Source of the DNA: Octopus vulgaris
Lineage: Eukaryota
Assembly: GCA_951406725.2 (NCBI GenBank)
Contig: OX597818.1
Coordinates: 124,558,001 to 124,622,000, forward strand
Length of the DNA stretch: 64,000 nt
Reading direction: 5' to 3'
Shown here piece by piece: positions 6,227 to 64,000 of this stretch (the stretch's first letter is position 1; every line of letters begins with the position of its first letter). Below the pieces are notes generated by a model, which saw only the letters and a list, made by a program, of their open reading frames with translations, was not told where the DNA came from and made no database searches. A program made the translations under genes and the position numbers.

Positions 6227-6264
<38 letters not shown>

Positions 6265-8142
6265 CTTGTATGTTTACACATGTAGGTGAATAATATATGT
6301 ATTTTCGTGTGTGTGTGTGTGTGTGAATGTGTCCATGCTGCTTTAACTATGCATTATAACATGATAGGAAAATGTAAATAAAACACATTACACTGTCTGA
6401 GAGCATATGTATGAAATATCTAAATGCTAGCCTGACTGCTGCTGGTGTCTAACTAAATTACACTAATTGCTTTGTTTTTGAGCGATTACAATGAGAACCA
6501 ATGGGAAATGTCTCTTAATGTGGAGAAAATGCCTGAGGAGAGACCCAGCAATCCAAATATGCAAACATCACTGTTTGGTTTCACTCTTGTACAGAGCCAA
6601 ATGGATCTTTATAGATGTTGTTTGTATATGTTTATATGTGTATGTGTATGTAATGTGCCTGGTGTGTGTATATGAGAGAGAAGGAGAGAGAGAGAGCTTC
6701 TGTGTGTGTGTGTGTGTGTGTGTGTTTTATGGAGGTGGAGGGAAGAATGTGTTTGGATTCAGCTATTAACAAAGTGATGTTCCTACAGCTACTTCTCTCC
6801 TTTAATTGCTTCTGTATTGAAGGGTAGCAACAGCCATGGTACCGATGCCATGGTGATGTTGATAATGATTATGATGATGATGATGATCATCATCATCATC
6901 ATCATCATCAACACCAATACTGTTGTTGCTACTCACCCCACATTATCAATACTTACTGATTCTACTATTAGTGTTAGTATTATCATTCTCATTAAGGCAA
7001 TGAACTGGCAGAATTATTAGCAGGCATGGCTGTATGGTAATAAACTTGCTTCCCAACCACATGGTTCCAGGTTCAGTCCCACTGTGTGGCACCTTGGGCA
7101 AGTGTCTTCTACTACAGCCTTGGGTCGACTAAAGCTTTGAGAGTGGATTTGGTAGACAGAAACTGAAAAATGCCTATCGTGTATGTATGTATACGTACAT
7201 ATATATTTATATTTATATTTATATATTTGTGTGTTTGTGTTTGTCCACCCACCATTGCTTGATAACTGATGGTGGTGTGTTTACATCCCCATAACTTTGC
7301 AGTTTGGCAAAAGAGACTGATAGAAGCATAAGTCCTAGGGTCAGTTTGTTCAACTAAAGGCAGTGCTCTAGCATGGCCACAGTCAAATGACTGAAACTAG
7401 TAAAAGAATAAAAGAATGCCTGACAAAATGCTTAGGGGCATTTTCTCTGCTTAAATCCTTAAATCCTTAAAAATGTTTTAGTCCGAAGGCCACAGCCATG
7501 CTGGGGCACCACCGTTTATGTTCTTGGTTTAAATGTCACTGGGGTTGACTTTGCCCTTCATCCTTTCAGGGTTGATTAAAATAAGTACCATTTCAACACT
7601 AGGGGCTGATTCAGTCGACTCTCCTCCCTCCCCGTACTCATTAAAACTGCTGGTTGTGTGCCAAATTTTGAAATTATTATTATCATTCTCATAGTCATGC
7701 AATGAAGGATTTTTTACAGGATCATGCAAACTCCTAGAAATGCCCATCAAATCAAACTATTATCTTAAAAAAACTGAAAGATACATTAGATTATGAAGGG
7801 ATGGTCACAGCTGAAATGTCTCTGATCATATATCTGCTTAATCATGGGCCTAGATAGACAATGACAACAAGCATTACCATCTGCATCATTGTTGTTGTTG
7901 CTATTGTAAATGTCAGCATCATCATTGTTGCCGTTGTTATCTCTGTCATCATTGTCATCAGTGAGATTGTTTTCATCTCCCCCCCCCCCCCACGCCAAAC
8001 CATGAAAATAGAATATTAAAATCATTATCAATATCCTTATACAACCATCCATTCATCCATCTATCCATCCACCCATACCCACCACCACTGATATCATCTA
8101 GGTTCTCAGTTTACTCTTTTACTCAGAATTACCAGTTCAGAT

Positions 8143-8350
8143 ATTACCAACACCTTCTCTGTCATCATCACCATCATAACCACCTTCACCATCTTACCAC
8201 CTTCACCATGACCACTACGATCACCACCTCCATCAACACCACCACCATTATCATTACCAACACCTTCTCTGTCATCATCACCATCATAACCACCTTCACC
8301 GTCTTACCACCTCACCGTGACCACTACAATCACCACCTCCATCAACACTA
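8143..8350. repeat. ~110-bp tandem duplication in a CAC/CAT-rich tract
   Basis: ATTACCAACACCTTCTCTGTCATCATCACC... occurs twice in tandem. Confidence 0.75.
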
Positions 8351-9916: not shown

Positions 9917-10065
9917 GTTGTTCACAAGTAACAAGTCATGGACTCTGCGGACTGGTGAATCTTCGTAACCTCGAAGAATTGGAGCTGACAAACTGTAACA
10001 GTGCCACGGCAGACCTCTGTCAATATCTCCGTGACAATATTTCTGGCTGTTTAGTCTTAGAATAA
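9917..10065 (+). CDS. FBXL16: Last coding exon of an F-box/leucine-rich repeat protein 16-like gene
   Basis: Polypyrimidine tract and acceptor tttactag| at 9916. The exon reads (G)CSQVTSHGLCGLVNLRNLEELELTNCNSATADLCQYLRDNISGCLVLE*, closely resembling the FBXL16 C-terminus as I recall it (GC..T..GL.GLV.L..LEELELTNC..AT..L..Y.....CLV.E). No upstream exon was found in 1-9916. Confidence 0.85.
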
Positions 10066-56899: not shown

Positions 56900-59330
56900 G
56901 GGTTTTGTGGAAAGAAAACAGAAGGGAAATGAATGAATAAATAAATAAATAAATAAATAAATAGGACAAAAAGGAAAGCAAGAAACAATGTAAAAAAACA
57001 AGAAAACAAAAAGGGGAAAAAATATATATATAATGAAAGGAATGATGTGAAAAAACAAGAATGAAATAAAGAAAAGAAAAGAAATACAATAGGTAGAGGA
57101 ACAAAAGAAAATAGAAAATTAGGGAAATAAATGAATTATAAAAATAAAAGCAAAAGTATAGAAAATTTAAGAGATGAAAGAGGAGAAAGGGGGAAAGGAA
57201 TATAAATGTAATGAAAATATCTATAAAAAGAAGGAAAGAAAGAATGAACAGAATATAGAAGAGAAAGAAATATAGAAACTAACAGGAAGGGAAGAAGAAG
57301 AGAGGAGTGAAAGAGATATAGAAACATAATGGAAGGAGGGAAGGAAGGAAAGCAGGAAGGAAGGAAGGAAGGAAAGAAAGAATGAATGGAAGAAGATAGA
57401 AATGAAAGAAATATAGAAACTAATACAATGGAGGAAAGAAGGAAAGAAGAAGAGGGGAGTGAAACAGATATACAAACATAATGGAAGGTGGGAATAAAGG
57501 AAGGCAGGAAGGAAGGAAGGAAGGAAGGAAAGAAAGAAAGAATGGAAGAGTATAGAAGTGAAAGAAATATAGGAACTAATACAATGAAGGAAATAAAATG
57601 AGAGGAGTGAAACAGATATAGAAAAGTAATGGAAGGAGGGAAGGAAGGAAGGAAGGAAGGAAGGAAAGAAGAAAGAAAGAAAGAAAGAATGAAAAAAGAA
57701 GATAGAAGTGAAAGAAATATAGAAACTAACGCAAAGAAGAAGAAAGGAGCAAAAGAGATATAGAAACATAAAGGAAGAAGTGAAGGAAGGAAGGAAGGAA
57801 ATAGGAGTGAAAGAAATATAGAAAGTAACAGGAAGGGAAGAAGGAAAGAAGAAGAGAGGAGTGAAAGAGATATAGAAACATAATGGAAGGAGGGAAGGAA
57901 GGAAGGAAGGAAAGCAGGAAGGAAGGAAGGAAAGAAAGAATGAATGGAAGAAGATAGAAATGAAAGAAATATAGAAACTAATACAATGGAGGAAAGAAGG
58001 AAAGAAGAAGAGGGGAGTGAAACAGATATAGAAACATAATGGAAGGTGGGAATAAAGGAAGGAAGGAAGGAAGGAAAGAAAGAAAGAATGGAAGAGTATA
58101 GAAGTGAAAGAAATATAGAAACTAATACAATGAAGGAAAGAAGATGAGAGGAGTGAAACAGATATAGAAAAGTAATGGAAGGAGGGAAGGAAGGAAGGAA
58201 AGAAAGAAAGAAAGAAAAAAGAAGATAGAAGTGAAAGAAATATAGAAACTAACGCAAAGAAGGAAAGAAGAAGAAAGGAGCAAAAGAGATATAGAAACAT
58301 AAAGGAAGAAATGAAGGAAGGAAGGAAGGAAGGAAGGAAATAGGAGTGAAAGAAATATAGAAAGTAACAGGAAGAAAAGACAGAAAGAAGAAGAAAGGAA
58401 CGAAAGAGATATAGAAACTAATACAATGGAGGAAAGAAGGAAAGAAAAAGAGGGGAGTGAAACAGATATAGAAACATAATGGAAGGTGGGAATAAAGGAA
58501 GGCAGGAAGGAAGGAAGGAAGGAAGGAAAGAAAGAATGGAAGAGTATAGAAGTGAAAGAAATATAGAAACTAATACAATGAAGGAAAGAAGATGAGAGGA
58601 GTGAAACAGATATAGAAAAGTAATGGAAGGAAGGAAGGAAGGAAGGAAGGAAGGAAAGCAGGAAGGAAGGAAGGAATGAAAGAATGAATGGAAGAAGATA
58701 GAAATGAAAGAAATATAGAAACTAATACAATGAAGGAAAGAAGGAAAGAAGAAGAGGGAAGTGAAACAGATATAGAAACATAATGGAAGGTGGGAATAAA
58801 GGAAGGCAGGAAGGAAGGAAGGAAGGAAGGAAGGAAGAAAGGAAGGAAGGAAGGAAGGAAAGAAAGAAAGAAAAAAGAAGATAGAAGTGAAAGAAATATA
58901 GAAACTAACACAAAGAAGGAAAGAAGAAGAAAGGAGCAAAAGAGATATAGAAACATAAAGGAAGAAGTGAAGGAAGGAAGGAAGGAAGGAAGGAAATAGG
59001 AGTGAAAGAAATATAGAAAGTAACAGGAAGAAAAGACAGAAAGAAGAAGAAAGGAACGAAAGAGATATAGAAACATAATGGAAGGGGGGAAGAAAGAAAG
59101 GAAGGAAAAGTGGAAGGAATATAAAAGGAAGAATGAAAAAAGAATGAAAAGCAAAAGAAAGCAAGAGATAGAGAAGGAAAGAAAATGAAGAAATATATAA
59201 AGAGAAAAAGATTGAGGAAAAGAATGAGAAAACAAATAAAAATGAAGAAAACTATGGGCAATGAAAAGAAGAACGAAAGAAAGGAAATGAGAGAGTGACT
59301 TGAATGAAGAAAAAGATGAGAGAATATTAG
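56900..59330. repeat. Purine-rich composite minisatellite
   Basis: Recurrent GTGAAAGAAATATAGAAAC modules separated by (GGAA)n/(GAAA)n, with higher-order duplication. Confidence 0.9.
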
Positions 59331-61801: not shown

Positions 61802-62218
61802 CGGCGGAGAGCTGGCAGAAACGTTAGCACATCTGGTGAAATGCTTAGCGGTATTTTGTCTGCCGTTAAGTTGTGAGTTCAAATTCCGCCGAGGTCGACT
61901 TTACCTTTCATCCTTTCAGGGTAGATAAATTAAGTACCATTTACACACTGGGGTCGATGTAATCGACTTAATCCCTTTGTCTGTCCTTGTTTGACCTCTC
62001 TGTGTTTAGCCCCTTGTGGGTAGTAGAAATAGGTATTTCATCTGCCGTTACGTTCTGAGTTCAAATTCCGCCGAGGTCGACTTTGCCTTTCATCCTTTCG
62101 GGGTCGATTAAGTAAGTACCAGTTACGCACTGGGGTCGATGTAATCGACTTAATACCTATGTCTGTCCTTGTTTGTCCCCTCTATGTTTAGCCCCTTGTG
62201 GGTAATAAAGAAATAGAT
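61802..62218 (+). mobile_element. Tandem dimer of SINE family C
   Basis: 61850-62030 is repeated at 62032-62218, nested in an older family C copy. Confidence 0.8.
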
Positions 62219-62840
62219 ATTTATTAACCCCCTTCCCTCAAAATTACGTACCTTTTTCCTAAATTAGAAACTATTACTAAAAAGGCGGTGATCTGATAGA
62301 ATCATTAGCTCAGGAAACAAAATGCTTCGTGGTATTAGTTCCAGCTTTGTATGTTCTGAGTTCAAATCCCACATAGGTCAACTCTGCCTTTCAACCTTTT
62401 GGGGGTTGATAAAATAAAGTACCAGTAATAAGTACCTGCTATGTTCCCTACCTAAAAATTGCTGGCCTTATGCTTAAATTAAAAACAATTATTATTGTTG
62501 TTGTTGCTGCTGTTGTTGTTGTTTCTGTTACTGTCATTATTTGATTTTAATTATTTTCCTATCTCATTTTGTATTTAGTAAAAGCAAAAAAAAAAAAAAA
62601 AAAAAAATTAGTAAAAATTGAAAAAAATAATAATAGAATAAAAAACAGAAACAGAAACATGGTAAACAAAAATTAAAAAATAAAACATTTACAAAACCTT
62701 TATTCATTTATTTATTTAACAGTAAAGGAAATAATGGAATAATTCAAATGAATTAAAGGCTATAATTATTTTGCTAGAGTTTTTCAAATTATTCTTGATG
62801 AGTTTCCTGAATTAGATGGGAAAATAATAATAATAATAAT

Positions 62841-62884
<44 letters not shown>

Positions 62885-62923
62885 TAATAATGATAATGAT
62901 GATGATGATGATGATAATAATAG

Positions 62924-62973
<50 letters not shown>

Positions 62974-63109
62974 GTTTCAAATTTTATCACAAAGGCAGTC
63001 ATTTTGTAAGAGGGGATATGTTGATTTCATCAACCCCAGTGGTCGTGGTGGTGGTGGTGGGGGTTGCAGCGGCAGTGATGGAGGGGGTGGAGGGGGTCAT
63101 TATCATATT

Positions 63110-63609
63110 TGCTAGATTCCCTTGTTCGAAAATATAAGGATACAGATCGTGTCATATAGCTAGCTGGAGATGATGTCCCCTGGGGCTAAATTACTGCAAC
63201 ATTCGTCCTAAACCAGGACTACCATGTTATATTGGTAAACAATCTTTACTCCAAAGTACTGTTGCAGAATATCTCTTATTGTGAAACTTAAAAATTGTAA
63301 TTTTCTAATTTATAGTTCAGTGACTTGAAAACTATATATTTCAAATGGGAATTTGGCAGCGCCACTTCTAGCCGAACAATTATTCTGTGCTGATGAAGGG
63401 AAATAACCTGGAAATCATGGTACACAGATATAGTTTTGAGCTGAGTGGGAGTGCTAGATTCCTTTGTTCGAAAATATAAGGACACAGATCATGTCATATA
63501 GCCAGCTGGAGACGATGTCTCCTGGGGCTAAATTACAGCAACATTCGTCCTAAACCAGGACTGCCATGTTATATCTCGCATTGTGAGATTTAAAAAAGTA
63601 ATTTTCTAA
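63110..63609 (+). mobile_element. ~342-bp partial tandem repeat containing one HHR (retrozyme or pLTR-like)
   Basis: 63111-63308 recurs at 63453-63609 with a ~40-bp deletion. The HHR lies at 63384-63428. Confidence 0.7.
63384..63428 (+). ncRNA. Minimal type-I hammerhead ribozyme motif
   Basis: TCTGTG-CTGATGA-AGGGAAATAACCTG-GAAA-TCATGG-TA|CACAGA. 6-bp stem I, canonical core, near-palindromic stem III (ATCATGGT), GUA triplet with predicted cleavage after 63422. Confidence 0.8.
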
Positions 63610-63737
63610 AACAAGATATATCAAAATTAATAATCAAGATCAGAGAAATTCCCAATTCTGATGATGTTTCCATTTCAGATTCTTCACTTTGATGATTATA
63701 GCACATCTCCATTTCTTCTGTTTCTGTTCAAAGCCAG

Positions 63738-64000
63738 GTGGAGGCGCAATGGCCCAGTGGTTAGGGCAGCGGACTCGCAGTCGTAGGATCGCGGTTTCGA
63801 TTCCCAGACCGGGCGTTGTGAGTGTTTATTGAGTGAAAGCACCTAGAGCTCCACGAGTCTCTGGCAGGGGATGGTGGTGGTCCCTGCTGTACTCTTTCAC
63901 CACAACTTTCTCTCACTCTTACTTCCTGTTTCTGTTGTATCTGTATTTCAAGGGGCCGGCCTTGTCACTCTCTGTGTCACGCTGAATATTCCCGAGAGCT
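63738..64000 (+). mobile_element. SINE family B (runs off the window end)
   Basis: Head identical to the 4510 copy. Confidence 0.8.

Follow-up and report, generated by a model that had tools for sequence, protein, structure and literature searches.

Positions 63110-63609 of the analysed window, a 64,000-nucleotide stretch of repeat-rich animal DNA from Octopus vulgaris, carry what appears from sequence comparison to be an old, decayed member of an abundant non-coding octopus repeat. We lean towards the view that this repeat is an abundant non-coding retroelement of about 352 nt, which bears a Penelope-type type-I hammerhead ribozyme and relies on a Penelope-like element (PLE) to be copied. 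Copy number, a shared junction, clustered 3' ends, inverted joints, an extra nucleotide in the ribozyme and its palindromic helix III tip the balance modestly towards this PLE-dependent reading, within which the PLE partner, the start site and the template form are what we infer. The locus itself is a dead repeat copy, and the family is of modest importance. If a more specific version of this reading, set out below, is true, it would link the mobilisation of animal retrozymes to a named mechanism of PLEs, with a cis signal that can be mapped. In a family with thousands of copies, inverted joints and a shared 3' end, the genome would reveal the start site, the role of cleavage, and whether a circle or a multimer was copied.

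Self-comparison of the locus revealed a partial tandem repeat on the plus strand. Copy 1 (63110-63451) is one full family unit, 342 nt long here with a GC content of 37%, and about 352 nt long in paralogs. Positions 63110-63232 match 63452-63574 with 93.5% identity over 123 nt at a spacing of 342 nt. Copy 2 is made up of a first block, equal to unit positions 1-121 (63452-63572, with 8 differences from copy 1), and a second block of 37 nt (63573-63609), which equals 63271-63308 and forms the 3' edge of the insertion; between the two blocks it lacks 40 nt, the equivalent of 63231-63270. The preliminary description of one full unit plus about half a unit in direct orientation is thus borne out for the repeat, its spacing and its identity, but copy 2 is not a plain half, because of the 40-nt deletion and the 37 nt that resume after it. 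The deletion of copy 2 is filled in paralogs found in contigs of public sequencing runs. The 3' edge of the locus, at the equivalent of 63308, lies 55 nt past the common 3' end of the family; that end is absent from copy 2, having been removed with its 40-nt deletion. No target-site duplication was found at the insertion.

Elsewhere in the window, 63738-64000 is a SINE-like interspersed repeat with a tRNA-like head recognised by eye (ARAGORN detected no tRNA in it) and five more matches in the window at 86-95%. At 61850-62222 a 182-bp interspersed repeat with dozens of window matches is present twice, head to tail, and contains no hammerhead core; a long purine-rich array at 57286-59109 is compound, with tandem periods of about 50, 144 and 304 bp nested in one another. 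The last coding exon of an F-box/LRR-repeat 16-like gene lies at 9917-10065, where 48 of 48 residues are identical to an Octopus vulgaris protein; no other exon for this protein is present in the window, and the hammerhead repeat is located 53 kb beyond the last exon.

The ribozyme motif is a type-I hammerhead with an extended helix I at 63375-63435 of the plus strand, in which a distal and a proximal helix are separated by an internal loop. The proximal helix (63384-63389/63423-63428) forms 6 of 6 pairs with predicted probabilities of 0.89-0.99, and the distal helix (63375-63380/63430-63435) forms 5 of 6, or all 6 once the family letter is placed at 63432. The catalytic core spans 63390-63414, with CUGAUGA at 63390-63396, an extra A at 63397, and GAAA at 63411-63414. 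Helix II (63398-63400/63407-63409) has 3 bp, an AAAUAA loop and an extra G (63410) after it; it can be drawn with three pairs, one of them G.U, flanked by the extra A and G, or with four pairs including a basal A.G mismatch. A 2-bp palindromic helix III occupies 63414-63422, with the predicted cleavage site after 63422, which reads GUA in this copy. The conserved CUGANGA, GAAA and NUH elements are all present, as are, at the sequence level, the internal loop and distal helix of helix I and an A-rich loop 2, whose tertiary contacts are putative.

A hammerhead descriptor matched once in the 64 kb on both strands and in 0 of 100 block-wise dinucleotide shuffles, and a looser scan found no further hammerhead in the 64-kb window. 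Rfam gave no match at the gathering threshold across the 64 kb; on 62900-64000 it gave no hammerhead at E<=10, and three unrelated chance matches. The motif is best described as non-canonical and nearer to Penelope-type hammerheads. Since the helix III segment is self-complementary over 8 nt, a dimeric helix is possible, and the palindrome suggests cleavage in a dimer form. The locus holds a single cleavage site, so that excision of a monomer is impossible here. In a metagenome scan for the motif, the sole match was a chance one of 20/21 in a phage-like contig with no further similarity. Among viral contigs, the core pattern gave 0 matches, and a looser variant pattern gave 52, none of which had a helix I of at least 5 pairs.

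We then determined how widely the unit occurs in public sequencing runs. Part of the stretch was contained in 20 of the 24 runs listed, with a word coverage of no more than 44% in any of them; runs labelled with four organisms contained at least 30%, and runs X17-X20 only small shares. Comparison at 80% likeness with three DNA runs (X1, X2 and X6) and one run of unknown library that we guess to be RNA (X15) aligned 7,006, 8,147, 6,254 and 825 contigs, respectively. Summed depth on the unit was 1.5e4-1.3e6, versus 35 on the unique right flank; it does not equal copy number, is inflated by short overlapping contigs and is taken to mean only thousands of copies, and it can also be reduced where this copy has local mismatches. 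The right flank (63610-63737) lies outside the family, its depth of 35 coming from X1 with none in X2, X6 or X15. The idea that this flank is one more degraded part of the unit was rejected, as 666 of 2000 shuffles scored equally well.

At five positions of the hammerhead (63375-63435), this copy departs from the letter that is commoner in the family in the three DNA runs: 63409 (C in 58-73% of the family), 63417 (G, 58-65%), 63418 (C, 46-61%), 63420 (A, 94-96%) and 63432 (T, 99%). Three of these differences are CpG-type transitions. Taken pair by pair, the family letters turn two G.U pairs into Watson-Crick pairs and repair the mismatch in distal helix I, and the helix III loop, CAUG here, becomes CGCG; both are palindromic. 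Because 94-96% of the family depth has A at 63420, the family site is AUA, and GUA is private to this copy. At 63410 the family, too, has the extra G (68-82% of depth). Among the 40 rows listed of 90, no differences fell in the core, GAAA or proximal helix I, and none broke the NUH pattern of the site. Paralogs have about 10 extra nucleotides at 63325, seen as loose ends before this position in 27, 35, 33 and 5 contigs of X1, X2, X6 and X15, which makes the family unit about 352 nt. A long imperfect hairpin lies upstream of the ribozyme at 63298-63345, and the 10 or so additional nucleotides at its tip in paralogs extend the inverted repeat. With the family letter at 63366, 63368 and the ten positions before it (63358-63368) resemble what we take to be half a CTCF-type site.

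These data bear on several points of the preliminary description. Its CTGATGA core and 6-bp stem I were recovered, with the core at 63390-63396 and 6 of 6 helix I pairs, and its retrozyme-like reading is supported as far as a multi-copy, non-coding, hammerhead-bearing unit of retrozyme size goes (342-352 nt, thousands of contigs, and paralogs with a head-to-tail junction). The possibility that the unit is a single-copy local duplication is contradicted at the family level by 6,254-8,147 contigs per DNA run and by the junction in paralogs. The GUA site that it reported exists in this sequence, but the family mostly has AUA. Its designation of the hammerhead as canonical and clean had to be given up in view of the 3-bp helix II with extra A and G, the lack of an Rfam match, and five private or minority changes. 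Nor do the data support the locus as a source of a 342-nt circle, as it has one cleavage site only and the family unit is about 352 nt.

Closure of the unit and the ends of family copies were assessed on the entries listed, comprising 32 of 22,856 pieces, 24 of 1,248 loose-end rows and 15 of 141 joints. The 63451/63452 junction was bridged by 16 of the 32 listed pieces, and the cleavage site, with at least 31 letters on each side, by 14. Three of the 32 extended beyond 63270, and one ran from 63210 to 63377 with 20 other letters. The overlap of these paralog pieces indicates that the unit closes head to tail; none of those listed spans the whole unit, and no listed contig has the length to show two consecutive units with complete hammerheads. 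Depth was 0.46-0.66 million at 63251, 0.13-0.35 million at 63266 and 15-32 thousand at 63277, a 21- to 42-fold fall from 63251 to 63277; it remained at 8-66 thousand from 63277 to 63366, and then climbed through the ribozyme. The fall takes two steps within 63251-63277, over some 15-25 nt (the optional tail of PLEs is 30-40 nt), and is confounded by local mismatches. Evidence separate from depth points the same way: AT-rich, long loose ends of low agreement were found behind 63254 in 27 contigs of X2 and behind 63250 in 28 contigs of X6. Contigs clipped at 63572 (90, 68, 60 and 14 in the four runs) track the unit for about 20 nt to the common end and then scatter. The common 3' end is thereby placed about 170 nt past the cleavage site, in the A/C-rich loop of a small hairpin.

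Joints that change strand made up 7 of the 15 listed, with one contig each, and 3 of them occurred in two runs. The end listing of the run comparison contained no pile-up of molecule starts or ends. The 825 contigs of X15 show the same uneven shape as the DNA runs; contigs show neither level, ends nor strand. Across the cleavage site (63432 versus 63409) depth changes 2.5- to 4-fold, a step that is confounded by four private mismatches and could come from run-off at cleaved 5' ends. Head-to-tail closure, the lack of any coding remnant found, clustered 3' ends, AT-rich ends and inverted joints together look like the mark of Penelope-like retrotransposition. Diverged subfamilies, in which the hairpins of the structured domain are kept and their surroundings differ, are suggested by loose ends and clipped pieces at 63368-63370, 63492-63501 and 63532.

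The common end falls within a predicted stable multi-helix RNA domain on the plus strand (63194-63267; pair probabilities 0.81-1.0), at the small hairpin whose A/C-rich loop is 63248-63252 and where many family copies end. RNA folding prediction gave a folding z of -2.7. Copy 1 differs from the family at five positions of 63190-63270, four of which constitute two double changes, 63195/63266 and 63221/63236, that keep Watson-Crick pairs; at the 5' partners, copy 2 agrees with the family. The simulated chance of such double changes is 1.3e-4, with the region and helices picked post hoc. Template switching on DNA can produce double changes in hairpin arms. The changes in copy 1 would fit template units that were not identical, or correction within a DNA hairpin, better than one circle copied twice.

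Under the PLE-dependent reading that we prefer, head-to-tail copies would be transcribed, and a PLE reverse transcriptase/endonuclease would bind the structured domain downstream of the ribozyme and nick AT-rich DNA. Synthesis of cDNA would begin internally at one fixed place, the equivalent of 63250-63254 (about 170 nt past the cleavage site), and would run back over a variable distance, mostly less than one unit. Sometimes the cDNA would cross an uncut ribozyme into the previous unit, yielding partial tandems like this locus. Cleavage would occur in a dimer formed through the palindromic helix III. Several findings speak against this reading: no autonomous partner element was found, the end listing has no pile-up of molecule starts or ends, the locus ends at the equivalent of 63308 with the common end deleted, and the extended helix I with its distal 6-bp helix is nearer to the canonical retrozyme than to minimal PLE hammerheads. 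To exceed one unit, a copy must have been made from a circle or an uncut multimer, or with a template jump; the sequence by itself does not separate these. A circle closed at 63422/63423, as proposed in the preliminary description, would equal the genomic sequence, so that this junction is not diagnostic. A more specific version is tentative and, in our judgement, rather doubtful as a whole: that a closed, retrozyme-like unit of about 352 nt is copied from one fixed internal start in the structured domain, as a PLE enzyme does in vitro; that the hammerhead, with A and G flanking a 3-bp helix II, is an active variant; and that, from the double changes of copy 1, the templates consisted of non-identical units.

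The best-surviving alternative, which we regard as unlikely, is that the repeat is the pseudo-LTR of an ordinary autonomous PLE, with most copies representing 5'-truncated ends and the short closed unit a minority deletion derivative. The same end signature and hammerhead type would be expected, 5 of the 32 listed pieces begin at 63368-63370 with 48-400 unaligned letters that are possibly other upstream sequence, and PLEs make up 6.83% of the O. vulgaris genome in 190 curated Penelope-like families, according to the available part of PMC13282606. An ATG inside the core (63393) also recalls an Anolis element whose ORF starts at stem II (PMC11167929). However, the frame from this ATG stops after 28 codons and gave no relative in a protein search, two other frames have no relatives or yield repeat-protein noise, all six frames contain 5-9 stops, and the end region is joined in paralogs to the region upstream of the ribozyme. 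No ORF with reverse transcriptase and GIY-YIG endonuclease was found at the locus.

Searches for coding content were otherwise negative. Pfam gave no notable match on seven read-through frames and no relative for the minus-strand frames, for which it was the sole check. One frame presumably resembles the C-terminal motif of PLE endonucleases; it was rejected as a candidate, since a protein search found no relative. A phmmer search against 1.84 billion representatives returned 4 matches, all to repeat proteins with weak summed scores, and was likewise set aside. A bacterial promoter scan stayed at chance level.

We consider it quite improbable that the family is a classical non-LTR retrozyme, in which long arrays give rise to abundant circular RNA and this copy was made from one circle copied more than once. 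The unit length of 342-352 nt (mussel retrozymes measure 350-390 bp in the available text of Cervera and de la Pena 2020, PMC7229834), the GC content, the folding z, the 6-bp helix I extended by an internal loop and a distal helix, and the closure of the unit in paralogs would all suit it. Depth at 63277-63366 is, however, about a twentieth of the peak, which makes whole units a minority, helix II is non-canonical, the locus has one ribozyme only, and copy 1 carries two pair-keeping double changes that are absent from copy 2. Least probable is that the retroelement family is real but the partial tandem arose later at the DNA level, by local duplication or recombination, and is uninformative on the RNA template: at two CpG sites (63154/63496 and 63278/63580) the two copies have minority letters in common, the 3' edge is not at the common end and DNA template switching could account for the double changes, but the shared letters are frequent in the family (15-27% and 32-50%), and 63451/63452 is the family's own junction in many paralogs rather than a private breakpoint.

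The PLE-dependent reading can be placed among known systems. For animal retrozymes, the identity of the mobilising enzyme is still debated on the grounds of phylogeny and co-occurrence (the available text of PMC7229834; Li, Clavereau and Pollet 2026, bioRxiv 10.64898/2026.07.22.740005), and no motif indicates the retrozyme partner (PMC7761336). We found no description of an octopus hammerhead repeat family in the literature searched; supplements, Lunse et al. 2017 or curated Penelope consensus libraries may include one. In the portion of PMC6962438 at hand, 235 Rfam hammerhead matches are given for the giant squid genome. The octopus family resembles the animal non-LTR retrozymes of PMC7229834, as far as its available text describes them, in being non-coding, 170-400 nt long and below 50% GC with one type-I hammerhead per unit, and also in its head-to-tail junction, high copy number and the presence of PLEs in the same genome. 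It differs in that most octopus copies seem to fall short of one unit in length and to have a common 3' end, and in the extra nucleotides flanking helix II. Li et al. argued that retrozymes are non-autonomous PLE derivatives, and observed cleavage in 1 of 9 dimers tested; they call active those copies with two complete hammerheads, whereas the octopus locus has one. The family has the size, GC, non-coding and junction features of a non-LTR retrozyme in their sense and may work like one; its membership is not established.

Hammerheads in the pseudo-LTRs of PLEs, in the accessible part of Cervera and de la Pena 2014 (PMC4209133), carry one additional nucleotide behind the core and have a helix III that is palindromic, both of which the octopus motif shares; the same text gives a CGCG palindrome for Aedes aegypti and, for Drosophila willistoni, an AUA site that also occurs in 450-bp tandems. 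Compared with the hammerheads described there, the octopus motif has a shorter helix II (3 bp), its GAAA is preceded by an extra G, its helix I is longer and includes a distal helix, and it has no adjoining ORF that we could find. The available text of Craig et al. 2021 (PMC8557442) lists, as hallmarks of PLEs, partial tandems, inverted heads and truncation at the 5' end. Frangieh et al. 2024 (PMC11167929) demonstrated that a PLE protein nicks AT-rich DNA and initiates reverse transcription internally, at an AC-rich stem-loop that follows the hammerhead downstream; they also showed that the genomic copies have their ends at these start sites and that the template is mainly uncut RNA. Their element, Poseidon PAc of Anolis carolinensis, resembles the octopus family in its fixed internal end downstream of the hammerhead, A/C-rich stem-loop, AT-rich flanks, and copies that read through the uncut ribozyme. 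PAc is autonomous, with starts 111-118 bp into the ORF and a 30-40 bp tail, whereas the octopus family has no ORF, ends about 170 nt past the cleavage site, and shows a second site only as a hint in depth. With mussel retrozymes already known, the octopus family adds to a known kind of element.
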